The position numbers were made by a program, and so were the translations under genes. Shown piece by piece: positions 1 to 43,454 of a stretch of 64,000 bases of DNA. The notes below the pieces were generated by a model, which was not told the DNA's origin, did not search any database, and saw nothing but the letters and a program-made list of their open reading frames with translations. The stretch is from the NCBI GenBank assembly GCA_016935095.1, contig JAFGRO010000002.1, positions 3,306 through 67,305 on the forward strand, read 5' to 3'. Origin of the DNA: Candidatus Woesearchaeota archaeon. GTDB lineage: Archaea; Nanobdellota; Nanobdellia; Woesearchaeales; GW2011-AR15. Position 1 is the stretch's first letter, and each line of letters starts with the position of its first letter.

Positions 1-220
1 TAACTCCTGTTTTTTCAATGACCTGTTTTATCTCATTGATTCCGTCTCTATTAAAAACAGGGTTTTGCGAGATATCTTCTTCAAAAATCCATTCTATGCA
101 ATCAAGGCCAACTTTATTTGCTGAATAAAATTCATTTTTCCAGCTATCTTTAGGAAATGCCTGTATCCTGTTATTTACTGGCGGAGAAAGCCTTCCCTGC
201 ATCACACCAATTCTGTTCAT
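1..220 (-). CDS. Partial CDS (N-terminal 73 aa; continues beyond the window start). Xylose-isomerase-like TIM-barrel sugar phosphate isomerase/epimerase family; last gene of the nonulosonic acid operon.
   Basis: Reverse-complement translation starts MNRIGVMQGRLSPPVNNRIQAFPKDSWKNEFYSANKVGLDCIEWIFEED. The GxMQGRL N-terminus is typical of AP_endonuc_2/TIM-barrel sugar isomerases. Its start codon at 218-220 overlaps the upstream stop (ATGA), indicating translational coupling. Confidence 0.5.
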   Translation of the reverse strand, partial: MNRIGVMQGRLSPPVNNRIQAFPKDSWKNEFYSANKVGLDCIEWIFEEDISQNPVFNRDGINEIKQVIEKTGV

Positions 221-936
221 TTTTTATGACCTGTAGCTAAAAGCATTTTTTCTTTTGCGAATCTTATTAATTTTCTTTGTGAAGTTTCATTTCTGTCTTT
301 CCATTTTAAATAATCAGGCAATAAGCTTATTATTTTCGGAATAAAGTTTAAACAAGGATATTCCCAGATAAAAGGCAACTGCAGGAAATATTCACAGCTT
401 ACCTCTGAAAAACCATTTATCCTCATTGCATTCTGCAGTCCTTTTCTTGTAAAAGCCTTTACATGTGTGTAATCATCCCAGTAATTTTTAAACTGGCTTT
501 TCCAGTCAGGAGTCATAATAACGGCAATTCCTCCTGGTTTTAAAACCCTAAGAGCCTCTTTTAAAATATTTTCTGTATTGGATATATGCTCAATAACAGA
601 TTTTGAAAAAACAAAATCAAAGAAATTATCTTTATAAGGAAGTTTGTCTTTTTCAAGATCACAAGATTCAATCGTGAAATTTTTTAATATTTCAACACAT
701 TCTCTTCTCTTATCAATGCCATAAGCCTGGAGACCGCATCTTGAAAAACCGACCAGGTGATTGCCTTTTCCGCTGCCTATATCCAGAATCCTGCATTTCT
801 TTTTGTTTTTAATTGCATAATGCTTAAAAAATCTTTTGAAAATATAATTACATATTTTTTGGGGATAATCTCTTTTTCCGTACTCTTTCCTGAAATAATT
901 AGTTTCAAGATAGCTTGGCATTCTATAAGACCTCAT
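217..936 (-). CDS. Class I SAM-dependent methyltransferase
   Basis: SAM-binding motif I LDIGSGKGNH is followed by an acidic residue (GIDKRRE) and then a VLKPGG motif. Co-directional with and overlapping the neighbouring genes. Confidence 0.8.
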   Translation of the reverse strand: MRSYRMPSYLETNYFRKEYGKRDYPQKICNYIFKRFFKHYAIKNKKKCRILDIGSGKGNHLVGFSRCGLQAYGIDKRRECVEILKNFTIESCDLEKDKLPYKDNFFDFVFSKSVIEHISNTENILKEALRVLKPGGIAVIMTPDWKSQFKNYWDDYTHVKAFTRKGLQNAMRINGFSEVSCEYFLQLPFIWEYPCLNFIPKIISLLPDYLKWKDRNETSQRKLIRFAKEKMLLATGHKK

Positions 937-1678
937 TAACCTTTTTTCTTAATTCCCTGAATTCATCATTATTTAAAATCTTTTCAGCGTATTTTAAATC
1001 TTCAATTATATCTAAATCTGCTGTTTTATCTGTAATAAAAGCATGTATGAATTTTCCATGGAGCATGTTTGTTCTTTTAATTGTTTCTGGTTTTATTATA
1101 TCAATATATCCATTTGGTTTGAATGTAACAGGAAATTTTTGTCTTGGATAATTATGGTATTCTTCATCTTCTTTAAATTCCTGTTTACAGAAAAAGTCAT
1201 AATAGCCTCCTGCTTTTTTGAATAATTTATAAGGTGTTTCTTTTAGTATATGCGAGCTTCTCAGAGAAGTTGCTTTTTTATCAGTAATCATCTCTTCAAT
1301 TGCCTTATCTATTAGTCTGAAATCCCTGAGCGGTGTTGTAGGTCTTAGGTGTACAATCAAGTTAGGGACATAATTCTCATTTTCTTTGAGAAAATCCAGT
1401 GCATGCATTACCCATTCCCTGTCAGTTGAATAATCACCAGATATATCTACTGGTCTTAAAAAAGGAACTTCAGCTCCATATTTTTCCGCAATCTTCGCAT
1501 ATTCTTCACTGTCAGTGGAGACAATGATCCTGTTAATAAACTTAGATAATTTGGCAGCCACAACTGAATACGCAATTAATGGATGTCCTCCTAAGTTTAT
1601 GATGTTTTTATCAGTGATTCCCTTTGAGCCGCTTCTTGCGGGAATCAGTGCAAGTATTTTTAGATTTGTTTCTTTCAT
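923..1678 (-). CDS. Acylneuraminate cytidylyltransferase family (CMP-nonulosonate synthetase, NeuA/LegF-like), copy 1
   Basis: N-terminal ALIPARSGSKGITDKNI and the following fold are characteristic of CTP_transf_3 CMP-NeuAc/CMP-Kdo synthetases. Sits directly downstream of a NeuB-like synthase. Confidence 0.85.
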   Translation of the reverse strand: MKETNLKILALIPARSGSKGITDKNIINLGGHPLIAYSVVAAKLSKFINRIIVSTDSEEYAKIAEKYGAEVPFLRPVDISGDYSTDREWVMHALDFLKENENYVPNLIVHLRPTTPLRDFRLIDKAIEEMITDKKATSLRSSHILKETPYKLFKKAGGYYDFFCKQEFKEDEEYHNYPRQKFPVTFKPNGYIDIIKPETIKRTNMLHGKFIHAFITDKTADLDIIEDLKYAEKILNNDEFRELRKKVNEVL

Positions 1679-1682
1679 TTAA

Positions 1683-2714
1683 TTATAGATTATCCACTCT
1701 TCTTAGTTTTTTAATTATCGGCTTTTCCGACTCAAATATCTTTTTATTGCCGTCGCCTAAATATAAAGAGAGGAATTCAGCTTCTCTGGTAATATATTCC
1801 ATTCCCTTTTTTTCAAGGCTTGCTGCCTGGTCACTTCCATACATAGACCTGTCCAGGGTAATATGCCTTTCAACTACGCATGCTCCTAATGCGAGTGCAA
1901 CAACCGAAGGCATTATACCTGTTTCATGGCCGCTGTACCCTATAGGGCAGTTAAAGTATTTCCTGAATGTTTTTATAACATTAAGGTTCAGCTCTTCCAG
2001 CTTTGTAGGATAAGTTGATGTGCAATGCAGAATCACAAGATTTTCCTCGCCTAATATACTTAATGCTTTTTTGATTTCCTCCATTGAAGACATGCCTGTA
2101 GATAATATAACCGGCTTGCCTGTTTCTTTTATTTTATTCAGCAATGATTTATTCGTTAGAGTGGCTGAAGCAATTTTATAACATGGCACATCAAATTTTT
2201 CAAGAAAATCAACACTGCCGACATCCCAGGGAGAAGCGAACCACATTATGCCTTTTTCTTTGCAATACTCATCAATCTCTTTGTATTCTCTCTCTCCGAA
2301 TTCCAGTGCCCTTTTTAAATCACCGTTTGTAGTGCCAAAAGGACTTTCCCTTGCTCTTTCTAAGTCCTCTTTTGAATAAACAACATCAACATTCCTTTTT
2401 TGGAATTTAACAGCATGCCATCCGCAATTTACTGCCAGATCAATTAATTTTTTTGCAATATTTATATCACCGTTATGGTTAATACCTATTTCAGCAATTA
2501 AAAAAACGGGCTGCTTATGACCTATTAGCCTGTTGCCTATTTTTACTGGTTCCGGGTTTTTAATATCCAGGAATATTTTTTCATAAAAATTCCAAGCCTG
2601 GATAACTGCCTGGGTCTTATTCAGAATTAGCCCGCTGCTTTCATTGACATAGCTGCTGATCTTTTCATTTAATTCTTCAGGTATTGTTAAAGACATATAA
2701 CCTTGTTTTGGCAT
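1683..2714 (-). CDS. N-acylneuraminate-9-phosphate/nonulosonate synthase family (NeuB/LegI/PseI-like), copy 1
   Basis: FLIAEIGINHNGDINIAKKLIDLA is the NeuB TIM-barrel signature. A C-terminal SAF-like domain (LRRVDNL) is present. Same strand as and adjacent to the cytidylyltransferase. Confidence 0.9.
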   Translation of the reverse strand: MPKQGYMSLTIPEELNEKISSYVNESSGLILNKTQAVIQAWNFYEKIFLDIKNPEPVKIGNRLIGHKQPVFLIAEIGINHNGDINIAKKLIDLAVNCGWHAVKFQKRNVDVVYSKEDLERARESPFGTTNGDLKRALEFGEREYKEIDEYCKEKGIMWFASPWDVGSVDFLEKFDVPCYKIASATLTNKSLLNKIKETGKPVILSTGMSSMEEIKKALSILGEENLVILHCTSTYPTKLEELNLNVIKTFRKYFNCPIGYSGHETGIMPSVVALALGACVVERHITLDRSMYGSDQAASLEKKGMEYITREAEFLSLYLGDGNKKIFESEKPIIKKLRRVDNL

Positions 2715-2816
2715 TTTCCCACCTCTGTGTTATGTACAGTACCTTTTTTTATTTATTTAAATAATTTTCTGTCATAAATTAGTTTGTACAGTACAAGTAC
2801 CGTAATAGTTAAAGAA

Positions 2817-4454
2817 TTATCTCTTTTTTAATATGCTATTTATTGCTTTAATTAATCTGTCATTAGCTTTTCCATCTGTTTTATAACAATATTCATAAGT
2901 CTCATTTTTTCTTTTTTCATTAATAGATTCTCTGAAGTTTTCATCAAATAGCATTTTTTTAATCAATTCATTTAATTTGTCACCGTGCTTAACAATAAAG
3001 ATAGAAGATATTCCATCAAACATATTTTCAAATAAATTCTCTCCGGACTCAAATTTCAGCAAGATACAGGGCCTGTTTAAGATCATTGCCTCAATCAAAG
3101 CAGTTGAGCCGAAGCTAATTACCAAGTCAGATTCCAGAATGGAATTATATAATATATCAGCGTTTTTATTACTTAGTGAGCCAAACCTGAATCTAATGTT
3201 TTTAATCCCAATCTTTTTGATTATTTTTTTATGCAAAGATATGTCTTTTTCAAGAGGATGTGTTTTAATGATAATCTCGGAATCAGGAAACTCTTTTAAA
3301 TTGGAAAACAGATAAAATAAATATTTTTCAAACTTTTCTTTAGGAAGAACTTTAAACTGCACTAGCGGTGAAGATAAGATTAATATTTTTTTTTTCCCTT
3401 TCTTTTTTTCTTTCTTTTTTATATAATTGCAGATACGCTCATTAATAAAAGAGCCAGTAACAAATATATTTTCAGGTTTCCATTCAGAGTATTTGATCAG
3501 TCTTTTTTTATCATTCGGGCCCCATACAGCAATCTTCGAGCTTGGAAAAAATTCAAAATTTATTCCTGTTAAATTATATGCATGAACTAAAAATAAAGAA
3601 GGTATTCCAGAAGAATGGGCAGCAGCAACCGCACACCTTTCCTGCAGACCGGAAACAACCAGTACAAGATCCAGTTGCTCTTTTTTAATAATATCTTTGA
3701 TTGTGTAATAATAAAGCAGGTAAATGAACAATATTTGTTTTGAGAATAATAAATCCAGTTCTTCATTCACAAACTTCAATAAGGATTCTTTTTTATAAGC
3801 AAATAGTCTCTCTTTAATCTTTTTATCTAATCTTTTCCATTTCCCGGAATATTTTTTTGCTTCTTTTAATGAGCGATAAAATGTTTCTTTGGAAATATAC
3901 TTATCAATCCAGTGATAATACCCTGAGGAAAGAGGCTTTTCAAATGGATTAGTGATTCTTGTTCCGATTACAGGAATTAATTCAATTTTATTGTCCTTTT
4001 CAAGTCTCCTGAATAATTCTCCAATTCTGAAAATATCAATTATTTTTCTTTTTTCATCCAGTTTAATCTGGTCAGTATGCGCTAGAAGCATGACCCTTTT
4101 CTTTTTTGTCTTTTTGCTTTTTTTTTTAACATCCTTTTTTTTAATTAACCTGATATAGTATGTGAAAATAATCACGCTAAGAAAGATTCTGAGGCTGAAT
4201 GAGGCTAGTTTCATCATAAGCCTATGAAAAAAAGAATAATCTCTTTTATCTAAAATTGCATTAAACCGTTTTGTGATTTCAAAGAAAGGAAGCGGAAAGC
4301 AGCCGGCATTAAACCTGAATGAATGAAACCACCAGATTGGGATGTTATCATCAATTTTAAAGGAGTCATCAAAACTCTGTTTATTGTTGATTTTTTTTTT
4401 TGACCAAACAAGTAGTGTCTCTTCAATGTTTTTTAAGGTGTCTCTTGTTTTCAT
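2817..4454 (-). CDS. Membrane-anchored GT-B-fold glycosyltransferase-like protein (TagF/KpsS 'capsule polysaccharide biosynthesis'-like). Candidate CMP-nonulosonate transferase. Paralog of 15985..17610.
   Basis: Hydrophobic helix near residue 90 (LASFSLRIFLSVIIFTYYIRLI). Poly-Lys linker KKKDVKKKSKKTKKKR. CAVAAAHSSGIPSLFLVHAYN motif. C-terminal GT-B-like nucleotide-binding region (VISFGSTALIEAMILNRPCILL). Family assignment not confirmed. Confidence 0.5.
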   Translation of the reverse strand: MKTRDTLKNIEETLLVWSKKKINNKQSFDDSFKIDDNIPIWWFHSFRFNAGCFPLPFFEITKRFNAILDKRDYSFFHRLMMKLASFSLRIFLSVIIFTYYIRLIKKKDVKKKSKKTKKKRVMLLAHTDQIKLDEKRKIIDIFRIGELFRRLEKDNKIELIPVIGTRITNPFEKPLSSGYYHWIDKYISKETFYRSLKEAKKYSGKWKRLDKKIKERLFAYKKESLLKFVNEELDLLFSKQILFIYLLYYYTIKDIIKKEQLDLVLVVSGLQERCAVAAAHSSGIPSLFLVHAYNLTGINFEFFPSSKIAVWGPNDKKRLIKYSEWKPENIFVTGSFINERICNYIKKKEKKKGKKKILILSSPLVQFKVLPKEKFEKYLFYLFSNLKEFPDSEIIIKTHPLEKDISLHKKIIKKIGIKNIRFRFGSLSNKNADILYNSILESDLVISFGSTALIEAMILNRPCILLKFESGENLFENMFDGISSIFIVKHGDKLNELIKKMLFDENFRESINEKRKNETYEYCYKTDGKANDRLIKAINSILKKR

Positions 4455-4478
4455 ATTATTATTTCAAATATTCTTTTG

Positions 4479-6227
4479 TTAATGATATTCATTATTCTTC
4501 AATATTGAATCCAGAAACTTTGAATTATTATAGATGGCATTAGTAAAATCATCTATTTTTCCGGAATTAAATGCTTCAATAATCTCAAGAATTCCCTGTT
4601 CAGCCTTTAGTTTAGTCCTGAAATTTAATTCTTTTTTAATTTTATCAAAATTCACTCTATAGTCTCGTTTATCAACATCTTTAAGCGAAATGTTCATCTT
4701 TGAGCTGGGAATTAATTCTTTTATTTTTTCTCCTATTTCAATAATTTTATAATTCTCTTCATTAGAGCCAACATTAAAAATTTCTCCTTTTACTTTGTTA
4801 ATAGGCGCTTCCAGAACTTTGATGTATGCGTCAGCAGCATCTTTTACATGAAGCAAGGGTCTCCATTGCTCTCCTCCGAAAACTGAAAATTCTCCTTTTT
4901 TTATGGCCAACGCTGTCAATATGTTCAAAACCAAATCAAATCTTGGCCTGTGAGAGAATCCGTAAAGTGTGCCCATCCTCATGATTGTAGGAGAAAAGTT
5001 TTCATCAGTTAATTCAAATAAACCTTTTTCACTGTTAATCTTGTCTCTTGCATATAACGAGACAGGGCTTAATTCTGAGTCTTCTGTTAAAATATCCTGG
5101 CCCTGCCCATAGACACTGCAGCTGGAGGCAAAAATAAACCTGTTAATCTGGTTGTATTTGCATATCTGAGCTAAATTTAAGGTTGCAAGATAATTCTGCT
5201 CAATTGTTTTTAAGGGGGATAAACCACATGCAGGATCTCCCACTATTCCTGCCAGATGAATCACAGCATTAACATCTCTTATTGATTTTGTGATATCTTC
5301 AATATGCCTTACATCACCTGTAACCAACCTGAAATTCGGATGATTTTCCAATTCACTGAGAGACTCTTTCCCGTATAATAATCTGTCCAGAACAACAACC
5401 CAGTATCCTCTTTTTAGGAGTTTTCTGACCAAGACCGAGCCCAAATACCCTGCGCCTCCTGTCACAAGAACAGAATTTATTTTTTTGTTTTTATAAGTTG
5501 AATAATTACTAAGATAATCATAGTAACCTTTGTTATAAACCTGTTTAAGTGCAGTTACCCTGGCTTCTTTATCTAAAACAGGGATTTTAAGAAATTTATT
5601 ATGGGGGATTAATCTAATTAGCTCTTCATTATCCATATTTTCTGTTCCGGTGACTGGATTTTTATTCATAATTTTGCCAATAGGCTCTTCATGACTTACT
5701 CCGGACAGAATTCCCTCTCTTATATCATTATCTGTAACAAGTCCTTTTAACCTTTCATTATCATCAACAATTAATCCAATCCCTAACCCGGATAAATCAA
5801 TCTTTTTCATTACAGATTTTAAAGAGTCATTTTTATTTACAAACACTTTCTCAAGTTCTTTGCCTTTTATTGAAACAGGCAACTCACTAAACTTGATAAA
5901 AATGTCAGCAACTTTATTGTCATCATCCACTAGGATAAGTTTTCCGACAATATCTCTTTTTTCAGTTAGTTCAATAAGTTCCTGTTTAGAAGAATTAATG
6001 TGGGCTGTAACTGGATTAAAATTAGCAATGCTTTTCAGCTTTTTGTTAATGTCATTATCTTTTATAAGGCCTCTTCTTAAATCCCCTGCGCTTACAATGC
6101 CTTTTAGCTTTTTATCCTGGTCAACTAATATGAGAATGCCTAACCCTGTCTCATTTAATATGCCTAGTCCTTTTTCAATAGTTTCATCCTCATTAACAAG
6201 AAGGGAATCTATAATGCCCTCATTCAT
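4479..6227 (-). CDS. Fusion protein: N-terminal tandem CBS domains plus C-terminal NAD-dependent sugar-nucleotide 4,6-dehydratase/epimerase (PseB/LegB/CapD-like)
   Basis: The N-terminal ~240 aa carry repeated CBS-like segments (VTAHINSSKQELIELTEKRDIVGKLILVDDDNKV; LKGLVTDNDIREGIL). The C-terminus has the Rossmann motif VLVTGGAGYLGSVLVRKLL and an SDR extended-family fold. Confidence 0.85.
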   Translation of the reverse strand: MNEGIIDSLLVNEDETIEKGLGILNETGLGILILVDQDKKLKGIVSAGDLRRGLIKDNDINKKLKSIANFNPVTAHINSSKQELIELTEKRDIVGKLILVDDDNKVADIFIKFSELPVSIKGKELEKVFVNKNDSLKSVMKKIDLSGLGIGLIVDDNERLKGLVTDNDIREGILSGVSHEEPIGKIMNKNPVTGTENMDNEELIRLIPHNKFLKIPVLDKEARVTALKQVYNKGYYDYLSNYSTYKNKKINSVLVTGGAGYLGSVLVRKLLKRGYWVVVLDRLLYGKESLSELENHPNFRLVTGDVRHIEDITKSIRDVNAVIHLAGIVGDPACGLSPLKTIEQNYLATLNLAQICKYNQINRFIFASSCSVYGQGQDILTEDSELSPVSLYARDKINSEKGLFELTDENFSPTIMRMGTLYGFSHRPRFDLVLNILTALAIKKGEFSVFGGEQWRPLLHVKDAADAYIKVLEAPINKVKGEIFNVGSNEENYKIIEIGEKIKELIPSSKMNISLKDVDKRDYRVNFDKIKKELNFRTKLKAEQGILEIIEAFNSGKIDDFTNAIYNNSKFLDSILKNNEYH

Positions 6228-7417
6228 TTGCAGGCCTCTTTAACTTCAGTTTTGAATTTATGTATCCTGATAATAGCTTTACATATTTTGTTAATTGTCT
6301 CTTCATCCATGAAATTATAGATAGGAAGACAAATCACATTATTTGAAACAAGTTCAGTATTTTTTAAATCATTATATTCTGCTTTTTCTTTATAAGCATC
6401 AAGTTTATGCATCGGAGGATAAAAATAAAATTTTGTCATAATATTTTCAGCATTCAATGCTCTTGCTAATTCATACCTGTTTAATCCAAATTCATTTTCA
6501 TTGACAGTAAATCCAAAATCCTTGTGTGTGGAAACATTTCCCTCTTTAATAATCTGGAAATTGATGCCCTGAATGTTTTTTAGTTCCTTTTTAAATTTAT
6601 CAACATAACTGTTCCTGTTTTCAACATATTTATCTAAATCTTTTAATTGGTGCAATCCTGTGACTGCGTTGATTTCGCTCATCCTTGCATTTAAACCAGG
6701 CCTCTTGCAGGAATAATCAGGATAATTGCCATAGTTCCTGTCAATTTTTAACATTTCAGCTAATTCAGTGTTATTTGTGGCTACTATTCCTCCTTCTATT
6801 GTCGTCAAAAGCTTTGTCGGGCTGGCACTGAAAACCTCAACATCACCAAACTGCCCGATTTTTTTTCCCTGATAAGATGAACCTAATGCATGGGCACAGT
6901 CAAAGATTAATTTTAAGTTATGTTTGCTGGCAATTTCCTGTAATCTCTCAATATAACAAGGGTTTCCATACATATGTACAGCAATAATTGCCTTTGTTTC
7001 AGGACTGATATTTTTTTCAACTTCTTCAGGTGAAATAGTAAATGTTTCCCTGTCAATATCAACAAATCTGATTTTGCAGTTATTCCAGTATGCGGCATGG
7101 ACTGTTGCAGAAAAGGTAAATGCAGGAACTAGCACTTCTGAATTTCTTAAACCAAGTGCCTGCATACTTAAAATTAAGCCGGATGTACAGGAAGAAACGC
7201 CTATAACATGTTTAACACCAATATAGTTTTCCAGTTCCTCTTCAAATTTCTTTAGTTTAATATCAACAGAAGTAAGCATATTGCTGTTTAAAACAGCGCT
7301 AATGTCTTTCAGCAATTCTTTTTCAACATATTTATCAACATTGGGCCTTATAATCGGCAGTCTTTTATCAAAAACAGCTCTCCCATTTAAAATTGCAGGT
7401 TTATTGTCCATTTTCAT
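6224..7417 (-). CDS. DegT/DnrJ/EryC1/StrS-family PLP-dependent sugar aminotransferase (PseC/LegC-like)
   Basis: Aminotransferase class V-like fold with the PLP-lysine context FSASPTKLLTT. The ORF track starts it at 7477, but the MKMDNK start at 7417 avoids a 77-nt overlap with the upstream gene. Confidence 0.85.
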   Translation of the reverse strand: MKMDNKPAILNGRAVFDKRLPIIRPNVDKYVEKELLKDISAVLNSNMLTSVDIKLKKFEEELENYIGVKHVIGVSSCTSGLILSMQALGLRNSEVLVPAFTFSATVHAAYWNNCKIRFVDIDRETFTISPEEVEKNISPETKAIIAVHMYGNPCYIERLQEIASKHNLKLIFDCAHALGSSYQGKKIGQFGDVEVFSASPTKLLTTIEGGIVATNNTELAEMLKIDRNYGNYPDYSCKRPGLNARMSEINAVTGLHQLKDLDKYVENRNSYVDKFKKELKNIQGINFQIIKEGNVSTHKDFGFTVNENEFGLNRYELARALNAENIMTKFYFYPPMHKLDAYKEKAEYNDLKNTELVSNNVICLPIYNFMDEETINKICKAIIRIHKFKTEVKEACK

Positions 7418-8075
7418 TATCTCCTTTAAAAATAAATTTATTTCCATATACTTCCAGGTAAGGTAAATCCCTTGCATTTGGAAAATATGTTGCTTTTAAT
7501 CTTCTTTTAATTTCATTTTCATCCATATCAAGGCTTAATTTACATAGTTCCTGCAAATCTTTTCTTGTATATGGTCTTCTTAACCATTTCTCATCTGACC
7601 TGGGTAAGGGTTTCTCTTTTTCAATGAATTTGAGAATATCATAAAATAAGGTGAGCATATAATCCATGGTTCTTTCTTTTAAAGATTGTACTGTATCTGT
7701 ATCCTGCATCTGGAATTTGATGGTTTTCACAATTTTTCCAGAATCAACTTTTTCCAGCATATAATGACATGTGGCGCCAAATTCCTTTTCCTGATTATAA
7801 ATTGCAAAATTATAACAGCCGATGCCAGGATATTTTGGGGATGCGGGATGGAAATTTATTGAAAACTTGGCTTTATTCAATAATTCTTTTGGAACAATCC
7901 AAGGTGAAAGATACGAGATAATATAATCACCTTCCCATTCAATATTGGGGAGAGGGTCACCGCTTTCACCTTCAAATATTTCTGTATTCGGAATTTTATT
8001 TTTAATACAATCCTGAACAATTTTGCAGTATTTTGATTTTTTTGTTAATAATAGGATTTTCATTTTTAATAACAA
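7401..8075 (-). CDS. Sugar N-formyltransferase (Formyl_trans_N family)
   Basis: FHPASPKYPGIGCYNFAIYN...GATCHYMLEKVDSGKIV matches the formyltransferase SLLPxYRG/HxxxxxxDxG catalytic-core pattern. Sits between the aminotransferase and the 2-epimerase, in the slot usually filled by an N-acetyltransferase. Confidence 0.75.
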   Translation of the reverse strand: MLLKMKILLLTKKSKYCKIVQDCIKNKIPNTEIFEGESGDPLPNIEWEGDYIISYLSPWIVPKELLNKAKFSINFHPASPKYPGIGCYNFAIYNQEKEFGATCHYMLEKVDSGKIVKTIKFQMQDTDTVQSLKERTMDYMLTLFYDILKFIEKEKPLPRSDEKWLRRPYTRKDLQELCKLSLDMDENEIKRRLKATYFPNARDLPYLEVYGNKFIFKGDNENGQ

Positions 8076-9217
8076 ATCTGCTTTTGGATTATATCTTTTG
8101 AAATTTTGATTTCACTTAATACTTTACAGATTTTAACTGAAGCAGTCCCTTCTCCATAAGGGTTTTTTATGTTTTTTAATAAATCTTTAAAATTTTCATC
8201 ATATAATGCTTTATTAATCGCTTTAATAATATCAGATTTGTCAAACTCAACATCAATCACGTTATTGCTTCTTTCTCTTAGCTTTTGCCTTATGCCAATA
8301 TTTACCACAGGTATCTTAAAAGAGGGAGCTTCTATTATACCTGAGCTTGAATTTCCGATTAAAACAGAACCATATTTTAATAATGAGAGATATTCTCTGT
8401 GCTTTAAATTTTTAAAAATTCTTAAAAATTTTTGATTCTTATTTCCCTCAATTATTTTAATTATCTGAAGAGTCCCAGAATCAGCATTGGGATAAATCAA
8501 TACTGTTGGCAAATCAAATTCTTTAATTGCATCAAGTGTTATTTTAAATTGTTTTCCTGAAGACCCGATTTCAGTTGTGACAGGATGCTGTAGAAGTATT
8601 AAAAAAGGCATATCCGGATCAATATTGAATCTTTTTTTGAAATCTTGTTTTGACATTAATTCTTCATGCAAAGCAGTATCTAGTCCTGAAGAACCCACAT
8701 TAAAAACATAATCCGGATTTTCTCCCATTTTAATTATTCTCTGTTTACTTTTTTCTGTAACTGCAAAATGAATATGGCTGAATTTTGTTATGGCATGTCT
8801 TGTGCATTCATCAAGACCTCCTGAAACATCCCCTCCGTGAATATGGGCAATAACCTTATTCATAAATGCTCCTGAAACAGCAGCAGCCAACGGCTCTGTT
8901 CTGTCACCTAAAATCAATATAATATCAGGATTTAAGTCTTTGAAAGCATTGGTTAAATTAATAATGCCTTTACCAACAGACCTGCTCATAAATTCTCCGC
9001 TGTCTCCGACTTCAGTCATTGGGACTTTTTTATCAATTGCAAAACCGTCTTTAATAATGTCTTCATAGGTATTACCGTATTCTTCCAAAAGGTGCATGCC
9101 CGTTGCAATTAACTGTAATGTGATTTTGTCATTTTCAGCTAGTCTTTTTATAATTGGCCTTAAAAGCCCGTATTCTGCTCTGGTTCCGGTCACAACACAA
9201 ATCTTTGTTTTTTTCAT
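8066..9217 (-). CDS. UDP-N-acetylglucosamine 2-epimerase family, hydrolysing type (NeuC/LegG-like)
   Basis: KICVVTGTRAEYGLLRPIIKRL and HIHGGDVSGGLDECTRHAITK are Epimerase_2 (WecB/NeuC) signatures. Confidence 0.85.
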   Translation of the reverse strand: MKKTKICVVTGTRAEYGLLRPIIKRLAENDKITLQLIATGMHLLEEYGNTYEDIIKDGFAIDKKVPMTEVGDSGEFMSRSVGKGIINLTNAFKDLNPDIILILGDRTEPLAAAVSGAFMNKVIAHIHGGDVSGGLDECTRHAITKFSHIHFAVTEKSKQRIIKMGENPDYVFNVGSSGLDTALHEELMSKQDFKKRFNIDPDMPFLILLQHPVTTEIGSSGKQFKITLDAIKEFDLPTVLIYPNADSGTLQIIKIIEGNKNQKFLRIFKNLKHREYLSLLKYGSVLIGNSSSGIIEAPSFKIPVVNIGIRQKLRERSNNVIDVEFDKSDIIKAINKALYDENFKDLLKNIKNPYGEGTASVKICKVLSEIKISKDIIQKQICY

Positions 9218-9228
9218 TTATTCCACTC

Positions 9229-10365
9229 TTATTCCAGCATCTCAAATGTAATTAAAGTGTCTTTTTTAATATCCTCTTTTGCTTTTCTTCCAATGATTTT
9301 TTCTAAAAATCTCGGGTGCAGACCCATGCCCGGTCTTTTAATTATTAAATCTTTCTTTTCTATTAACTTGCCTTTATTGATGTCTTTATCTGAGATTATG
9401 CTTTTTCTTGTAATTTTTGCAATTCGTAACTCTGCGTCATATGGTTTTTTTTCAGGTGACCCGAGGATTTTTTCAATATTATCTAATTTCAGATTCTCAC
9501 CAAATTGTTTATTAATCTCTTCAAAAGCCTGTTTTGGAGAGAGAATCTTATTATTAAAAATAAATCTTGAATATTTCATTATTTTTTCAATTTCATCAGG
9601 TTCAGCAGAAGCTTTGTGGTCAGGGCCATACATTTTTTTATCAAGTGTAAAATGTTTTTCAATTACATTAGCGTTAAGACATGCCGCTATTACAGATGCT
9701 TCAATTCCCTCACTATGATCCGAGAATCCGACCAGACAATTAAATTCATTTTTAAGTGTAAGCATTGCTCTCAGGTTAATTTTATCAAGAAGCGTTGGAT
9801 AATTAGTAGTGCATTGCAGTAATATGAGTTGGTCATTATTTTTCTTAATCACATCTACAGCTTCTCTGACTTCCTGTAAATTAGCCATTCCCGTACTAAG
9901 AAAGATTGGTTTGCCTAATCTTGAAACATAATCTAAAAACGGCAAATTAGTCAAATCTCCTGAACCAATTTTAAATCCGGGAATTCCAATTTTATCAAGA
10001 ACATCAGCACTCCATTTGCCGCAGTGAGGTGTTGATAAAAAAATAATCCCCTTCTTGTCACAGTACTCTTTCATGATTTTGTGTTGCTCTTCTGTTAATT
10101 CTATCCTTTTTAATAATTCAAGATAACTTTCATCACTTCCTGTGTTTTTTTTTGAATACTCGACCTGTTCTGTTTTTTCTGTTACAAGCAGTTCTGCTTT
10201 AAAAAGCTGGAACTTAATACTATCAACACCGATTTCCAGGGCTTTGTCAACTAATTCCTTTGCAATTTTAATATCTCCGTTATGGTTGACTCCGGCTTCA
10301 GCAATAATAAAGCAGGGATGATTTTGTCCGATTATTTTGTTGCCAATCTTAATTTTATCTTTCAT
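9229..10365 (-). CDS. Nonulosonate synthase (NeuB/LegI-like), copy 2, with C-terminal SAF domain
   Basis: CFIIAEAGVNHNGDIKIAKELVDKALEIG is the NeuB signature. The C-terminal ~60 aa look like a SAF antifreeze-like domain (LIIKRPGMGL). Confidence 0.9.
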   Translation of the reverse strand: MKDKIKIGNKIIGQNHPCFIIAEAGVNHNGDIKIAKELVDKALEIGVDSIKFQLFKAELLVTEKTEQVEYSKKNTGSDESYLELLKRIELTEEQHKIMKEYCDKKGIIFLSTPHCGKWSADVLDKIGIPGFKIGSGDLTNLPFLDYVSRLGKPIFLSTGMANLQEVREAVDVIKKNNDQLILLQCTTNYPTLLDKINLRAMLTLKNEFNCLVGFSDHSEGIEASVIAACLNANVIEKHFTLDKKMYGPDHKASAEPDEIEKIMKYSRFIFNNKILSPKQAFEEINKQFGENLKLDNIEKILGSPEKKPYDAELRIAKITRKSIISDKDINKGKLIEKKDLIIKRPGMGLHPRFLEKIIGRKAKEDIKKDTLITFEMLE

Positions 10366-11582
10366 TTCTCAGTCTCCCATATTGGGTGTCTCAGCTTCCA
10401 TTCTCCTTTTTCCTTTTTCCATAAATGAGGCGACCTGAATTTATCCGCTGTCTCAAAAAATTCATCTTTGCTCATATCCAGATACTCTAAAAATTCTTTG
10501 AAATATCGTTTTGGAAATTCTGAATCAAATTTCTTTACTAATGCAATCCCTTCATCCCTTGTGATCTTTTTATTCCTTATCTCCTGGGATGCATCATAGG
10601 TTGCTCTTCCAATCCCGAATTTGATAAGAGTTGTCCAATAATGATAAGGGTCTGTCTTGTCATCAATACTGTTATATTTTGAATAAGTTCCTTCGGTTCT
10701 CTGGTCATTTGGCTGAAACCCTATCTTTTCAACAGCAAAATAATAAGCTTCCTGGGGATCCCATTTCTCATAATAGCCGACGTAGTGTACATTGATTTCT
10801 TTATTATTTGCACTATCCGGATCAAGAGGAAGATAAGGATCAAGGTCAGTCATAGTTAATCCGTATTTTTTAATAAGCTCTCTGACCTGCACTCCTCCAA
10901 GGAATAAATTCATATAATCTCCATGTAAATGAAATTTTTTTTCTCTGAGAGAAGAAAGAACATCTTTTTTTGGGTTGCCGTATTCTGCTTCATTTTCACC
11001 GTAAAATACTAGAGGGACATCATACTTTAATGCAAATTTAGCCCCAATGTTTTTTTGTCCGAGAATAAACGGCTGGAATGGGTGAAGTAAATTGACAAAT
11101 GCTAATCTCGTTAATAACCTGTGTACCTTGCCATTTGGTGTAAACAGTATATTGTCAAATCCCCCTTTTTGAGTCCATGCGCGGAAATTACGCCACCCGT
11201 AAGGTGTAAATAAATGAGGTGCCCATGTAACAGTAAGAGGGTTCATATTGTATTTGTATTTTAACAGCCATGCTGCCATTGTGCTATCCTTGCCTCCGCT
11301 TCCCGGCACTATGCAATCATACCTACCCTCTGTTCTTCTGTATTTGTCACATAATCTTTTTAATTCTTTTTCTCTTTTTTTCCAGTCGATTTTCTCTTTT
11401 AATTCTGAAACTCTGCATGCATCGCAGATTCCTTCTTCATCAAAGTTGATGGTGTGTTTTTTGGATTTAACTGTATGTCTGAATTCCAGTGAAGAAGAAG
11501 GTCTTTGATTTGAAATAACACAATGTTTGCAGTATTTCACTTCTTTTGGTAATCCATAATATGCTTCTACGTTATTGTTCAT
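10362..11582 (-). CDS. N-acetyl sugar amidotransferase (WbuX/PseA/AglX family; PP-loop ATP pyrophosphatase)
   Basis: N-terminal Zn-ribbon cysteines (CKHCVISNQRP...GICDACR). PP-loop SGGKDS. Immediately upstream of a HisF/HisH paralog, as in the WbuXYZ / AglXYZ systems. Confidence 0.8.
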   Translation of the reverse strand: MNNNVEAYYGLPKEVKYCKHCVISNQRPSSSLEFRHTVKSKKHTINFDEEGICDACRVSELKEKIDWKKREKELKRLCDKYRRTEGRYDCIVPGSGGKDSTMAAWLLKYKYNMNPLTVTWAPHLFTPYGWRNFRAWTQKGGFDNILFTPNGKVHRLLTRLAFVNLLHPFQPFILGQKNIGAKFALKYDVPLVFYGENEAEYGNPKKDVLSSLREKKFHLHGDYMNLFLGGVQVRELIKKYGLTMTDLDPYLPLDPDSANNKEINVHYVGYYEKWDPQEAYYFAVEKIGFQPNDQRTEGTYSKYNSIDDKTDPYHYWTTLIKFGIGRATYDASQEIRNKKITRDEGIALVKKFDSEFPKRYFKEFLEYLDMSKDEFFETADKFRSPHLWKKEKGEWKLRHPIWETEK

Positions 11583-11592
11583 TTTTTCACCT

Positions 11593-13026
11593 TTATAAAG
11601 AACTAAAATATTGTATTATACTCATACCCAATGCTCCGCTTTTTTCCGGGTGGAACTGTGTTGCAAACAGACTGTCTCTTCTTAATATTGAGCAGAATTT
11701 CTGCTCACCGTATGTTGTTATTGCAACAATATTTTTCGGGTTTTCAGGATAAACATAATATGAATGAATAAAATAAGCTTCTGAGCAAGAAGACTTATTT
11801 GAAATAAACTCATTAAAGAATCCATTATTAGGTGTTAACTTATTCCAACCCATGTGAGGGATCCTGTAATATGTGTCCTTAACCTCTTTTTTAGGTTTAA
11901 AAGGAACTACTTTTCCCTGTATAATATCAAGCCCTTTATGATGTCCGAACTCAAAGCTTTCACTCATCAATACCTGCATTCCGAGACAGATTCCTAAAAA
12001 AGGTTTATTGTTCTTAATATATTTTTTAATCGGTTCAATAAAACCCCTGTTTTTAAGCTCCTGCATAGCATAACCAAATGCCCCGTCCCCTGGTAAAACC
12101 AAAAGGCTTGACTTTAGGATCTCTTCAGGATTTTCAATAATCTTTACTTTGTTCCCAAAAAACCTGAAAGCATTTACAACACTTTGTAAATTGCCTGCTC
12201 CGTAATCAATAACAGAGAGGGTCTTTTTATTATTGATATTTGGCTGTTCAACTTGCCATTCATTTTTTTCTCTCATTAAAAAATTATTTTTTTTAAGGTA
12301 AGCTTTTACTTGGTCTATAGATGTTTCATTATAATGTAAGATTGTACCAAAAGCAACAGCATCACATCTGGTTACTTCAAGACAATTCAGTATATCTGCT
12401 TCATTAGAAGCTCCTCCGCAAGCTATAACCGGCACATCAACCACAGATGAGATCTTTTTTATTAGTTCAACATCATATCCTTTTCTTGTCCCTTCCTTAT
12501 CCACAGAAGTAACAAGCAATTCTCCTGCACCTAATTCAACTAATTTTTTTGCCCATTCAATAGCATCTAGATTTGTTCTTTCCCTTCCGCAGTCAATATA
12601 GTTCTCCCATTTATCTTCTCCATGATATTTTGCTTCAATAGAGCCTACTATACACTGTGATCCGAACATTCTTGAAGCCTGATTAATAAATCCGGGATTT
12701 CTTATTGCAGCAGTATTAATTGCAACTTTATCTGCTCCTGCTCTCAGCAGTTTCTTAATATCTTCTATGGTCCTTATACCTCCTCCGACAGTGATAGGAA
12801 TAAAAATCCCGTTAGAGGTTGTATTTTCAACTACCTCAAGAAGATTGTTTCGCTCGTATAAACTGGCAACAATATCAATATAAATTATTTCATCAGCTCC
12901 TGACTCATAATACTTCTTAGCAAGCAAATCAGGCTTGCCTACAACTCTTAAACCTTCCATTTGTATTCCCTTGACAACATTAGGTCCCTTTACATCCAGT
13001 CTTGGAATAATTCTGATTTTCTTCAT
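11593..13026 (-). CDS. Fused imidazole-glycerol-phosphate-synthase-like protein: HisF-like cyclase domain (WbuZ) at the N-terminus and HisH-like class I glutamine amidotransferase (WbuY) at the C-terminus
   Basis: N-terminus IIPRLDVKGPNVVKGIQMEGLRVVGKP plus a second half-barrel (VTSVDKEGTRKGYD) give a HisF fold. C-terminus LSVIDYGAGNLQSVVNAFRFFG...GICLGMQVL...FHPEKS carries the GATase Cys-His-Glu triad. Confidence 0.85.
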   Translation of the reverse strand: MKKIRIIPRLDVKGPNVVKGIQMEGLRVVGKPDLLAKKYYESGADEIIYIDIVASLYERNNLLEVVENTTSNGIFIPITVGGGIRTIEDIKKLLRAGADKVAINTAAIRNPGFINQASRMFGSQCIVGSIEAKYHGEDKWENYIDCGRERTNLDAIEWAKKLVELGAGELLVTSVDKEGTRKGYDVELIKKISSVVDVPVIACGGASNEADILNCLEVTRCDAVAFGTILHYNETSIDQVKAYLKKNNFLMREKNEWQVEQPNINNKKTLSVIDYGAGNLQSVVNAFRFFGNKVKIIENPEEILKSSLLVLPGDGAFGYAMQELKNRGFIEPIKKYIKNNKPFLGICLGMQVLMSESFEFGHHKGLDIIQGKVVPFKPKKEVKDTYYRIPHMGWNKLTPNNGFFNEFISNKSSCSEAYFIHSYYVYPENPKNIVAITTYGEQKFCSILRRDSLFATQFHPEKSGALGMSIIQYFSSL

Positions 13027-13721
13027 TTTATCTCCATTAATTTTTCAGCTATCTTCCAGTCAATAGGCTCATCAATATCTATAGAACTGATCTTATCCAT
13101 AGGAAAGGGGAATACCCTTTTTCCATAGCCATAATTACCTGATTTAAAAATTACATCTGATGTGTAAATATAAATAGCCCCGTTTATTTCATAGGTTTCT
13201 TCTTCATCCTGTGTTCTTAAGACATTAAAATCATTCTCAAAAAGAAATCTTACTTGATTTTTCTCTTTTTTTAAAATCCACTGCGGACCAAGATGTCTCT
13301 TTGTCACAGAAAACAATGTGTCTGCATTATTGTCAGCAAATATTTTTATTGCAGAATCAATATGCTCGGCTTTTCTTAATGGAGATGTTGGTTGCAGCAG
13401 GACAACAATATCCGGAATATATTTCTCATTTGCATTCAGATAATTTAAAACATGCTTTAATACATCAATTGATTTAGACGTATCTTCTGCAAGTTCTTTT
13501 GGTCTGTCGATAATCTCCGCTTTGTATAGCAATGCACTGGCTTTTATTTCAGGGTCTTCAGTAGATACTATTGTCCTGTCAATATATTTTGAGTTTAGGG
13601 ATTGCTCAATAGAATAAGCAATTAACGGCCTGCCTTTTAATAATCTAATATTTTTTTTTTTAATTCTTTTAGAGCCGCCTCTGGCAGGAATTATTGAGAT
13701 AATCTTTCTCTTACCATACAT
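13023..13721 (-). CDS. Acylneuraminate cytidylyltransferase family (CMP-nonulosonate synthetase), copy 2
   Basis: IISIIPARGGSKRIKKKNIRLLKGRPLIAYSIEQS is a CTP_transf_3 signature. 4-nt overlap with the downstream gene. Confidence 0.85.
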   Translation of the reverse strand: MYGKRKIISIIPARGGSKRIKKKNIRLLKGRPLIAYSIEQSLNSKYIDRTIVSTEDPEIKASALLYKAEIIDRPKELAEDTSKSIDVLKHVLNYLNANEKYIPDIVVLLQPTSPLRKAEHIDSAIKIFADNNADTLFSVTKRHLGPQWILKKEKNQVRFLFENDFNVLRTQDEEETYEINGAIYIYTSDVIFKSGNYGYGKRVFPFPMDKISSIDIDEPIDWKIAEKLMEIK

Positions 13722-14220
13722 AAGGATCTACCCTGTCTTTATCATCATATTCCTTCAGTTTAAGCAGGTCATATGTTTCGAATTTGTATGCTACAGTTGT
13801 AAGTGATTCAGACCACTCGCTGATAAGATTGCTGTTCTTCTTTTTAATCTCGTCACTTACCCTTGCCAAATCCTCATGGTTTTTGGCAATTATGACAAGT
13901 GTGAAATCATATTCACCTGAGATTGAAAATACTTCTGCAATTCGCGGGTGTTTTACTACAAATTCTATGAATGATTGTACTTTTTTATGGTCATAGTTGT
14001 GCAACTTTACTTTTATGTCTACAATATAGGGATATCCAAGAATCCTTGGTCTCAGCTGGATTTTCGGGTTAAAAATCTTTTCTTTTCTCATCTTTTCAAT
14101 TCTTTTTTTTACTGAGTCAACAGAAAGCCCGACCTTTTTAGCTATGTCAGTCAGTGACATCCTGCAGTCTTCCTGAAGCAGATTCAGAATAAGACAGTTT
14201 TTTTTGTCTAAATCAACCAT
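13711..14220 (-). CDS. lrp: Lrp/AsnC-family transcriptional regulator (HTH plus RAM domain), first gene of the 14-kb operon
   Basis: N-terminal HTH LLQEDCRMSLTDIAKKVGLSVDSVKKRIEKM. C-terminal RAM/AsnC_trans_reg-like domain. 169 aa is typical for archaeal Lrp. Confidence 0.85.
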   Translation of the reverse strand: MVDLDKKNCLILNLLQEDCRMSLTDIAKKVGLSVDSVKKRIEKMRKEKIFNPKIQLRPRILGYPYIVDIKVKLHNYDHKKVQSFIEFVVKHPRIAEVFSISGEYDFTLVIIAKNHEDLARVSDEIKKKNSNLISEWSESLTTVAYKFETYDLLKLKEYDDKDRVDPYVW

Positions 14221-14324
14221 CGATTGAAAACCTCCGTTTTTTTGACAAATTATTGTGCCTTCGCTTATTTTTTAGTATCAATTGTTATATTTAAATTAAG
14301 CAAAGGCTTTTCATATATGTAATT

Positions 14325-14403
14325 AAAATTTAAGATTCATATTTATATTTTTCGTATTTTTTCGTATTTTTTCTGGTTTTTATCTTAAAATTTAAGATTT
14401 CAT
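14325..14403. promoter_or_regulatory. Divergent promoter/operator region. Two 16-17-nt direct repeats (AAAATTTAAGATT(T)CAT at 14325-14340 and 14387-14403) flank a tandem 10-bp repeat (TTCGTATTTT x2 plus a degenerate third copy, 14351-14380) and an A/T-rich TATA-like element (ATTTATATTT).
   Basis: Read directly from the sequence. Lies between the divergently transcribed lrp (minus) and a B12-radical-SAM gene (plus). The 10-bp period matches one helical turn. Confidence 0.5.
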
Positions 14404-14507
14404 TAAATAAATTAGAGATAAAATCGGCTTAAGTATATAAAAAAGGATATTTCAGGTACTTTTTTAAATTAAACTTAATTTTCAGGATTAGAAAAAGTGA
14501 TGTAGCA

Positions 14508-15953
14508 ATGTTCACAAAAAAAAACAAAGTATTGTTTATAATTCATGATGTATACCAGGAAGATAATCAGTTTCCATTAGGTCCAGGTTATCTTGCTGCT
14601 GTTCTTAATGATAAAGGAGCTTATGTTGAATCATACTGTATGGATATATTTCATTATACCCATGAGCAGCTGGCAGAGCATTTGCAGAAAAACGAGTATG
14701 ATTTAATATGTCTGGGCTTTTTAGCTGCCAGGTTCAAGGAAACAGTTCTTGATTTAAGCAGAGTTATTAATCAGAATAAGAAAAATGCATGGCTTGTTTT
14801 AGGTGGTCACGGTCCCTCTCCGATTCCTGAATATGTGCTAAAAACCACACAGGCAGATGTTATTGCTATAGGCGAGGCAGAAAACACTATTGTTGAATTA
14901 TTAAAATGCAAAATATCAGATGGTGATTTATCAGAAGTGCATGGCATTGCTTACCCTGAAAATAATGAAATAAGAATAACGCAAAAAAATAATATTGTTA
15001 AAAATCTGGACAACATCCCTTTTCCCTTGTGGGATATATTTCCAATGGCTAAATATACTACTTGTTTACAATTATTTAATCAGGAGTCAAATGAAAAAAG
15101 TTTTGTATTCCTCACGAGCAGGGGCTGTGTAAACAGGTGTAATTTCTGCTACAGGCTTGAAAAAGGGCTGAGATTAAGAAGTATATCAAATATTATTGAA
15201 GAATTCAGACAATTATATGACAGATATGGTTTGAATTGTTATTTTTTCATGGATGAATTATTTGTATTAAATAAAAAACGGTTATTGGAATTTGAAAAAG
15301 CACTTAAAGATGCAAATCTGAAAATAAAATTCTCCTGCAATGCAAGAGTTGACATTATGGATGAAGAAATGGTGAGGATTCTTAAAAGATGCGGCTGCCA
15401 ATTTATAAATTTCGGTTTTGAATCAAGCGATGATAATGTGCTTAAACTCATGAATAAAAATGCGACTGTTGAACAAAATATAAGGACGCTTGAGGTTGTT
15501 AAGAAGGTAGGAGGAATAGGGATGGGTCTTAATTTTCTCTGGAATAATTTAGGTGATAGCGAAAGAACCCTGAAGCAGAATGTTGCATTAATAAAGAGAT
15601 ACAACACATATGACCAATGCCGTACAATCAGACCTGTTACGCCTTATCCCGGATCTGATTTATATTATAAATTGATTGAGCTAGGGAAACTAAAAGGTCC
15701 TGAAGATTTTTTTAACAGGTTTATAAATTCAGATTTAATTTTAGTTAACCTTATGGATATGCCAGATAAAGAAGCATATCAGCATTTGTTAAAAGCAAAC
15801 ACAGAGCTTATTCTTGACCATTATAAGCATACCCAAGGAGATATGGAAAAGGCAAATGCGCTTATCCGGAAATTCAAAGACTTGTATGAGGGCAGGATAA
15901 CTAATTTTCGTGGTGCCAGGCATTATAACAAAAACGAGCAACAGAGTAAATAG
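14508..15953 (+). CDS. Cobalamin-binding (B12) radical SAM protein, class B radical-SAM family
   Basis: N-terminal B12-binding-like Rossmann domain (KVLFIIHDVYQ...LGPGYLAAVL...DLICLG). Radical-SAM cluster motif RGCVNRCNFCY (CxxxCxxC). Confidence 0.85.
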   Translation: MFTKKNKVLFIIHDVYQEDNQFPLGPGYLAAVLNDKGAYVESYCMDIFHYTHEQLAEHLQKNEYDLICLGFLAARFKETVLDLSRVINQNKKNAWLVLGGHGPSPIPEYVLKTTQADVIAIGEAENTIVELLKCKISDGDLSEVHGIAYPENNEIRITQKNNIVKNLDNIPFPLWDIFPMAKYTTCLQLFNQESNEKSFVFLTSRGCVNRCNFCYRLEKGLRLRSISNIIEEFRQLYDRYGLNCYFFMDELFVLNKKRLLEFEKALKDANLKIKFSCNARVDIMDEEMVRILKRCGCQFINFGFESSDDNVLKLMNKNATVEQNIRTLEVVKKVGGIGMGLNFLWNNLGDSERTLKQNVALIKRYNTYDQCRTIRPVTPYPGSDLYYKLIELGKLKGPEDFFNRFINSDLILVNLMDMPDKEAYQHLLKANTELILDHYKHTQGDMEKANALIRKFKDLYEGRITNFRGARHYNKNEQQSK

Positions 15954-43430: not shown

Positions 43431-43454
43431 ACAGTTATAATTTATTCTGAGATA

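Follow-up and report, generated by a model that had tools for sequence, protein, structure and literature searches.

How is the control region of an archaeal Lrp gene organised, and which of its several repeats would the regulator bind? The question arises in a 64,000-nucleotide stretch of a Candidatus Woesearchaeota archaeon genome (contig JAFGRO010000002.1, hereafter the window), where a 287-nt spacer (14221-14507) separates lrp, a gene for an Lrp/AsnC-type regulator on the minus strand, from an open reading frame for a B12-binding radical-SAM protein on the plus strand. The spacer holds a left flanking repeat AAAATTTAAGATTCAT (14325-14340), a TATA-like element ATTTATATTT (14341-14350), two tandem units of TTCGTATTTT (14351-14360 and 14361-14370), a degenerate third unit TTCTGGTTTT (14371-14380), and a right flanking repeat AAAATTTAAGATTTCAT (14387-14403). 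A first-pass annotation had listed these elements at coordinates that all match the sequence exactly, and had proposed that together they form a multi-site operator for cooperative Lrp binding. Our analysis divides this proposal: it appears to hold for the flanking repeats, which are conserved, helically phased palindromes, and it fails for the tandem 10-mers. We read the spacer as an autoregulated promoter-operator module of an operon made up of lrp and genes of nonulosonate synthesis, to which Lrp would bind cooperatively; judged from sequence comparison, the probability of this reading is about 0.72.

The exact repeat common to both flanks is 15 nt long (TTAAAATTTAAGATT, 14323-14337 and 14385-14399), with a start-to-start distance of 62. 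Its right copy makes up the core of a 17-bp perfect palindrome that had previously been missed, ATCTTAAA-A-TTTAAGAT (14382-14398; core CTTAA[AAT]TTAAG), identified by a palindrome search and an ortholog-derived matrix and here called the distal box, O_D. The left copy belongs to a half-palindromic proximal box, O_P (14320-14336; ATCTTAAATTTTAATTA on the minus strand), recognised by ortholog spacing and 15-mer comparison. The TATA-proximal half of O_P is perfect and the other half degenerate; O_P as a whole has 2 mismatches to the 15-mer. The box consensus is TCTTAAA-W-TTTAAGA, a 15-bp palindrome. Scored with the matrix, which was built from the ortholog boxes, O_D (14383-14397) reaches 26.5 of a possible 28.1 bits, and the next best site in the window 11.1 bits. 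With up to 2 mismatches to TCTTAAANTTTAAGA allowed, the window yielded no further site, and the box is confined there to the lrp spacer. The centres of O_D and O_P lie 62 bp apart, which is about six helical turns and the commonest spacing among the orthologs; therefore, both boxes face the same side of the DNA. The flanking repeats are two boxes that bracket the predicted transcription factor B recognition element (BRE) and TATA element of lrp on the minus strand.

This arrangement is conserved. Ortholog loci were collected by scanning a genome collection (one genome per species) with an alignment of 46 homologs, which gave 59 loci; the same scan with the single Lrp protein returned no match, and the alignment query was needed. 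The loci come from metagenome-assembled genomes whose taxon labels, e.g., "Methanosarcinales", are the depositors' own, and the start codons of the orthologs were assigned by rule. In 34 of 38 loci (DPANN archaea and the window), the 300 nt that precede the lrp ATG contain a box with at most 2 mismatches. Allowing the same number of mismatches, the 15-mer had 36 hits in the 11.1 kb upstream of lrp against 16 in 431 kb elsewhere in the same loci, and is thus about 90 times denser upstream of lrp. The strict core CTTAA-WWW-TTAAG gave 30 hits upstream, spread over 29 of the 38 loci, and a single one elsewhere in 442 kb. The positions of the operator box arms are nearly invariant in 37 boxes (core CTTAA[AAT/ATT]TTAAG). 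Most boxes start at -79 to -81 from the ATG and some at -90.

A histogram of element positions relative to the lrp ATG, drawn from 39 loci, revealed the architecture of these promoters. The left arm of the distal box (CTTAA) peaks at -80 (17 loci, plus 6 at -90) and its right arm (TTAAG) at -75/-70 (19 loci), followed by a middle half-box (CTTAA) at -50 (17 loci), the BRE ([CA]GAAA) at -40 (14 loci), the TATA element (TTTAWAWA) at -35/-30 (29 loci), and a proximal half-box (TTAAG) at -10 (17 loci). The orthologs therefore display, in order, a full distal box, a half-box in the middle that is fused to the BRE, the TATA element, a proximal half-box, and an essentially leaderless ATG. Box centres fall near -73, -43, and -12, that is, 30-31 bp or about three helical turns apart. 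The distal and proximal boxes are separated by 60-62 bp in 10 of 17 loci, by 72 bp in three and by 31 bp in two, and the box spacings measured overall were 19-21, 30-32, 60-62, and 72 bp. Three near-identical loci (L007, L008, and L011, one of them labelled Undinarchaeales) carry three or four boxes or half-boxes at a spacing of about 20 nt around 5880-5990, with 72 bp between the distal and proximal ones.

The behaviour of the box in changed genomic contexts is informative as well. The sole strict core outside the regions upstream of lrp lies in locus L018 (7040-7147), directly upstream of a cytidylyltransferase gene (ATG at 7145). In this genome lrp stands apart from the sugar genes, and the second module is complete with box, BRE/TATA, and proximal box: next to its full box it has a half-box that is fused to AGAAAG-ATTTAAATA and, in the proximal position, TTCTTAAGAA. 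This suggests that the operator is tied to the nonulosonate genes and not to lrp alone. Meanwhile, more distant homologs (L042-L053, 33-43% identity; labelled Aenigmatarchaeota, Nanoarchaeota, and others) lie outside sugar clusters, with flanks that give no tblastn match to window proteins. They display TCTTA-N5-TAAGA between the TATA element and the ATG (e.g., L051, 5930-5962). As these loci keep the palindrome without the sugar genes, the autoregulatory design would be older than its link to the sugar cluster. The four most distant members of the family (23-31% identity) have no box.

Between the two boxes of the window lies the predicted core promoter of lrp. With a BRE/TATA matrix derived from 33 ortholog promoters, the best match in the spacer is found at 14338-14357 on the minus strand (9.3 bits), and comprises the BRE ACGAAA (14355-14350) and the TATA element TATAAATA (14347-14340). 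The ortholog offsets agree with this placement: TACGAAAAATATAAATA is as far from the distal box as TACGAAAGATTTAAATA is in L003, L012, L020, and L021, and the last 10-mer, which bears the BRE, is placed as TACGAAA-TTTAAATA of the orthologs relative to that box. The initial description of ATTTATATTT as a TATA element is thus well founded. Because the last minus-strand 10-mer is a BRE at the ortholog offset from the distal box, this TATA is, from its sequence context, that of lrp on the minus strand and not primarily that of the radical-SAM gene. Read on the minus strand, the module is ATCTTAAATTTTAAGAT - aaaaaccagaaaaaa - TACGAAAAAA - TACGAAAAA-TATAAATA - tga - ATCTTAAATTTTAATTA. Transcription of lrp would be expected to start near 14314-14320, and O_P begins 3 nt downstream of the predicted TATA, over the predicted start-site region. 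Archaeal promoter logic applies here since the Lrp protein matches, at 100% identity, an NCBI entry for a Candidatus Woesearchaeota archaeon; a look-up of the exact protein gave a single return, a 2-kb contig from run SRR13394437 that is identical to the window and so carries no information on strain variation. The same matrix also gave strong matches at 43414-43433, 35382-35401, and 29956-29975, which precede the ATGs at 43455, 35361, and 29935 by 21-30 nt, and at 28089-28108, about 50 nt ahead of the ATG at 28040. Most first genes of this genome appear to be leaderless, unlike lrp and the radical-SAM gene.

The tandem 10-mers occupy the space between O_D and the TATA element (TACGAAAAAA in 2.6 copies on the minus strand, 14348-14381, perfect over 14348-14373). 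Tandem Repeats Finder reported a period of 10, 2.6 copies, and 100% matches. The 26-nt perfect stretch is the sole perfect run of at least 14 matches at lags of 7-15 in the 64 kb, and such a run appeared in none of 60 first-order Markov simulations. Together with the degenerate unit, the tandem forms four A-tracts at a 9-10-bp phase; counted as T tracts of five or more (14348-14381), they are the sole chain of four in the window and occurred in none of 100 simulations. Abundance of the repeats at non-promoter positions of the genome, which the first-pass annotation had named as refuting its proposal, was not seen within the 64-kb window, the extent covered by this check. The spacer is indeed a structured control region, as the first-pass annotation had it. 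The last TTCGTATTTT unit holds the lrp BRE, and none of about 40 orthologous control regions contains the tandem 10-mers. We read the tandem as a lineage-specific duplication, probably by slippage, of an A-rich 10-mer carrying the BRE. DNA bends more readily where A-tracts recur about every 10 bp between protein sites, and the phased tracts may help to bend the stretch that separates the boxes. Another perfect 10-bp tandem, TTTTTTCATA in 2.2 copies (47356-47377), lies in another divergent intergenic region (between genes at 46134-47309 on the minus strand and 47431-49164 on the plus strand). It was rejected as an instance of the same element, as it has no Lrp box and inspection by eye revealed no BRE/TATA.

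The product of lrp (13711-14220, minus strand) is a protein of 169 aa whose assignment to the Lrp/AsnC family, also known as feast/famine regulatory proteins (FFRPs), is confirmed by its domains, its nearest structures, and its predicted fold. Pfam searches assigned an HTH_AsnC-type domain (9.5e-14) and an AsnC_trans_reg domain (1e-9). The N-terminal helix-turn-helix (HTH; PF13404, residues 4-45, three predicted helices) scored 51.4 bits against a cut-off of 27, and the RAM domain (PF01037) 38.5 bits against 25. An AlphaFold2 monomer model (predicted local distance difference test score of 86.9) displays the HTH, a full beta-alpha-beta-beta-alpha-beta RAM fold (strands 64-72, 93-98, 105-111, and 132-139; helices 77-89 and 114-127), and an extra C-terminal helix. 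The model and the first sequence of the Lrp alignment do not include Met1, and numbering there is one below that of the full protein. The top Foldseek matches of the model were Lrp/AsnC structures only, and the nearest solved structures are LrpA (1i1g, E 2.2e-12) and FL11/PH1519. The scores for named NCBIfam equivalogs all stayed below their cut-offs (LysM 51.7/180, LrpA 47.1/250, Lrp 45.4/233, and AsnC 44.2/227 bits). The protein falls into a separate subfamily, which has a C-terminal extension, and more than 100 homologs at 50-70% identity were found in DPANN metagenome bins. The extension comprises the last 30 or so residues (window 13711-13830), reaches past the RAM domain, and is marked by invariant Trp, Thr, Phe, Glu, and Tyr (WSESLTTxxYKFExYD). 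The model places an additional predicted helix within it at residues 151-163.

The form of the box points indirectly to this protein as the one that would bind it. Archaeal Lrp/FFRP sites follow the form abcde[AAT/ATT]e'd'c'b'a', as SELEX and crystallography have established (PMC2715240). The box is likewise a 13-15-bp palindrome with an AAT/ATT centre, and, as in FFRP operators, several helically aligned sites lie in the control region of the regulator itself. Leu24 of FL11, through which that protein touches base pairs d and e, has Leu23 as its aligned counterpart in Lrp, and these two pairs are A:T in both sites. A fuller residue-to-base prediction from the FL11 contacts was dropped, being ambiguous beyond the pairing of Leu with d/e. 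The DNA-contacting loop LSVDSVKKR is common to all box-bearing homologs.

The likely target of this regulation is the operon headed by lrp itself. Twelve co-directional genes follow lrp (217-13721, minus strand; assigned by Pfam, NCBIfam, gene order, and tblastn), making up a 13-gene operon whose junctions are mostly short gaps or overlaps. Its order after lrp is a PseF-like cytidylyltransferase, a WbuZ/HisF-HisH fusion, a WbuX amidotransferase, NeuB, NeuC, a formyltransferase, a PseC/LegC-like aminotransferase, a LegB-like (CBS-) dehydratase, and then further genes (NCBIfam names). Up to its stop codon, lrp shares 11 nt with the beginning of the next gene, and this overlap and the gene order bear out the earlier placement of lrp as the first gene of a nonulosonate operon. 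The arrangement is conserved: searching with window proteins by tblastn, we found nonulosonate genes within the flanks of lrp in 30 of 35 loci (L002-L036, most of which carry lrp homologs of at least 50% identity), mostly directly downstream and on the same strand. Among the five exceptions, one (L005) is a 1.5-kb contig and another (L020) ends just past lrp. The genes found near orthologous lrp were homologs of the cytidylyltransferase, NeuB, WbuX, HisF/HisH, and NeuC, and the closest relatives of the window locus show the same arrangement. The pathway under likely control makes nonulosonic acids of the legionaminic/pseudaminic type that carry acetamidino or formyl groups. Acids of this kind are typical decorations of S-layers, pili, or archaella. 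NeuB-like synthases (1683-2714 and 9229-10365) and CTP_transf_3-like cytidylyltransferases (923-1678 and 13023-13721) are each encoded twice in the operon, which suggests two nonulosonate branches or products.

Based on these findings, we propose the following mechanism. Dimers of Lrp would bind the boxes cooperatively as parts of a larger oligomer joined by their RAM domains, and the bound oligomer would bend or wrap the promoter DNA between the boxes, which the four phased A-tracts arising from the 10-mer duplication may pre-bend. Most archaeal Lrp proteins autoregulate, and LrpA represses from a site that borders the TATA element downstream, where it blocks RNA polymerase recruitment while TATA-binding protein (TBP) and transcription factor B (TFB) stay bound (PMC2995911). 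By analogy with Pyrococcus LrpA, an occupied O_P, lying over the predicted start site, would block the recruitment of RNA polymerase. The outcome would be negative autoregulation of lrp together with the co-transcribed nonulosonate genes, and on this analogy a net negative effect on the lrp-nonulosonate transcript is the outcome we favour. In the activator arrangement of Ptr2, LysM, and Ss-LrpB, the site lies just upstream of the BRE; Ss-LrpB combines both arrangements in a concentration-dependent dual switch (PMC2995911). Cooperative autoregulation of this wrapping type is consistent with the three-box layout conserved among the orthologs. The distal box, joined in many orthologs by the BRE-fused middle half-box, could similarly allow activation at low occupancy. 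A small-molecule effector would be expected from the intact RAM domain; that it is an amino acid, as first suggested, would follow purely from family membership.

The radical-SAM gene (14508-15953, plus strand; 481 aa, with Pfam B12-binding and Radical_SAM domains) is a possible second target. Its protein met no NCBIfam equivalog at that family's cut-off. Tentative promoter elements for this gene, assigned with the matrix and by analogy, are TTAAATAAA (14403-14411) and GTATATAAAA (14433-14442) on the plus strand. The former is located a few nucleotides beyond O_D, with a matrix score of 6.6 bits for 14392-14411. In other divergent loci (L006, L007, L025, and L034), the outermost box lies about 8-20 nt, as estimated by eye, upstream of the TATA-like element of the divergent gene. 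With the distal box lying shortly upstream of a TATA-like element oriented toward the radical-SAM gene, both transcripts might come under common control. A radical-SAM homolog is divergent from lrp in L006 and L016 only, and HisFH takes this place in others. The divergent partner thus differs between genomes, and we regard the co-regulation put forward by the first-pass annotation as no more than plausible.

The window locus is atypical in one respect, namely a leader of about 95 nt between the promoter module and the ATG (14221-14319, minus strand), identified by comparison with the orthologs. The boxes of the window lie at -177 and -115, as opposed to -80 and -19 in the orthologs, and the closest relatives (65-70% identity) carry the short leader form. 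Within the leader, also on the minus strand, are a seven-codon upstream open reading frame (14291-14314) whose ATG takes the position that the lrp ATG has in the orthologs, another, weaker TATA-like element TTTAAATATA (14284-14293; 5.1 bits with the BRE/TATA matrix), and a Shine-Dalgarno sequence GGAGGT (14230-14235). An 11-bp inverted repeat (14257-14267 / 14297-14307) could form a hairpin in the minus-strand RNA (z = -2.57), and its sole imperfect pair is a G.U in that RNA only. An Rfam scan of 14100-14650 at E <= 1 gave no match. The leader had no significant copy in the window or the ortholog loci, and hence shows no sign of being a repeated or mobile element. A partial duplication of the promoter was considered as its origin; the 71% identity over 34 nt was judged unconvincing in AT-rich DNA. 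What is seen here may be the scar of a rearrangement or a short leader with a regulatory function.

Several observations weigh against an autoregulatory module of this kind. O_P is devoid of the critical G of its second half and has a matrix score of 6.4 bits, and the middle half-box of many orthologs is missing from the window spacer. The extra leader of about 95 nt, with its second TATA-like element, parts the module from the ATG; a downstream promoter could therefore be active, with the boxes acting from upstream. That Lrp and not another factor binds the box rests on co-occurrence and site form. Finally, the exact 17-mer ATCTTAAAWTTTAAGAT was found in at least 120 metagenome stretches, and three of those listed adjoin an Lrp homologue, at -82 to -90. 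The 17-mer occurs in many unrelated, mostly AT-rich metagenome contigs; an AT-rich 17-mer is unspecific at that database scale, and this comparison therefore carries little weight.

Other explanations of the spacer were considered. The boxes might be an upstream activating site for the TTTAAATATA promoter of lrp, the radical-SAM promoter, or both, working by TBP recruitment of the Ptr2/LysM type and not by repression. The window leader with its second TATA-like element would suit such a role, and so would the few nucleotides that separate O_D from the TATA-like element on the side of the radical-SAM gene, a closeness also seen in L006, L007, L025, and L034. In this family, activators occupy sites immediately upstream of the BRE. 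However, the BRE/TATA between the boxes scores 9.3 bits against 5.1 for the downstream element, and in nearly all orthologs the proximal half-box sits between TATA and ATG, the position of a repressor; we therefore consider activation of this type rather unlikely. It is less likely again that the boxes, although conserved, are bound by another protein (a transcription factor or a variant basal factor) while Lrp regulates other targets. The link between box and protein is correlative, which leaves room for such a factor, but a 13/15-bp palindrome with an AAT/ATT centre is characteristic of archaeal Lrp/FFRP sites, and the box tracks homologs with a common recognition loop across changed genomic contexts. 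It is moreover absent from other promoters of the window and rare in the 431 kb of related loci.

The tandem 10-bp repeats, as originally proposed, might themselves be the cooperative Lrp array, with the flanking direct repeats as accessories. They are statistically real, are phased at exactly 10 bp, and lie between the two boxes, roughly where many orthologs have the middle half-box. Nonetheless, the TACGAAAAAA units are direct and not palindromic and are unlike the box, and their restriction to this lineage and the identity of the last unit as a BRE make it very improbable that they are operator sites. Least credible of all is an artefact of composition in an AT-rich spacer, or a target-site duplication in which the 15-nt repeats surround a small insert. 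The window has 32% G+C, the single short-word counts of the repeat units are near chance, and many low-scoring tandem repeats occur throughout it; yet the tandem and the phased tracts exceed all simulations, and the fixed positions of both boxes in dozens of species-level genomes already refute this explanation.

If the autoregulatory module is real, its implications extend beyond this locus. The subfamily includes records labelled Woesearchaeota, Nanoarchaeia, Undinarchaeales, and Micrarchaeota. We put forward, at a little short of even odds, that it is a DPANN-wide Lrp subfamily dedicated to nonulosonic-acid clusters, with its own operator TCTTAAA-W-TTTAAGA, a leaderless promoter of three boxes phased at about 30 bp, and a RAM domain that may sense a metabolite of the pathway. 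In place of a classical feast/famine amino acid, this domain, which is followed by a conserved C-terminal extension, may recognise, for example, glutamine or a nucleotide sugar. Such a dedicated subfamily would constitute a switch for cell-surface remodelling in host-dependent archaea. No paper joining Lrp regulators with nonulosonate clusters was found in the searchable portion of the full-text literature, and, as far as that search reached, the regulator described here would have no archaeal predecessor dedicated to nonulosonate synthesis. With CTTAA, the FFRP recognition code would gain a new arm specificity. Autoregulation of Lrp through phased palindromes is textbook knowledge for the family; the kind of system is well known, and what is new is the subfamily, the specificity of its box, and its consistent link to nonulosonate genes in DPANN archaea. 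To our knowledge, very little is known about the regulation of transcription in DPANN archaea, organisms that are uncultured or host-dependent. The locus would provide a concrete regulator-operator pair for them, with a precise 15-bp site, a conserved promoter architecture, and a clear target pathway.

The proposed module is reminiscent of several known systems. Bacterial nucleoprotein promoters of the Lrp/IHF type, with bends from phased A-tracts, likewise have A-tracts at about 10 bp between protein sites; the tracts here differ in being lineage-specific and probably a by-product of the 10-bp duplication. Another parallel comes from LrpA of Pyrococcus furiosus, an autoregulating member of the archaeal Lrp family whose site borders the TATA element downstream, as O_P does here and the proximal box does in the orthologs; O_P lies over the predicted start site, with the TATA element placed by matrix and alignment. 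In contrast to LrpA, the box has another sequence, a distal full palindrome is added 62 bp away, and the gene heads a 13-gene sugar operon. FL11 (PH1519) of Pyrococcus, which autoregulates too, shares with Lrp the site form, the Leu at the position contacting d/e, and A:T pairs at d/e. However, its arms are TGAAA/CGAAA rather than CTTAA, and its loop is A-E-S-T-x-H rather than S-V-D-S-x-K. FL11 senses lysine and controls amino-acid metabolism, whereas the genes linked here make nonulosonic acids. Lastly, Ss-LrpB of Sulfolobus solfataricus also has several helically aligned 15-bp palindromic boxes in its own control region, to which it binds cooperatively, with DNA wrapping and dual, concentration-dependent autoregulation (PMC2995911). 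Ss-LrpB differs in its consensus (TTGCAA[AAT/ATT]TTGCAA), in its crenarchaeal host, and in its targets, and one of the boxes described here lies downstream of the TATA element.

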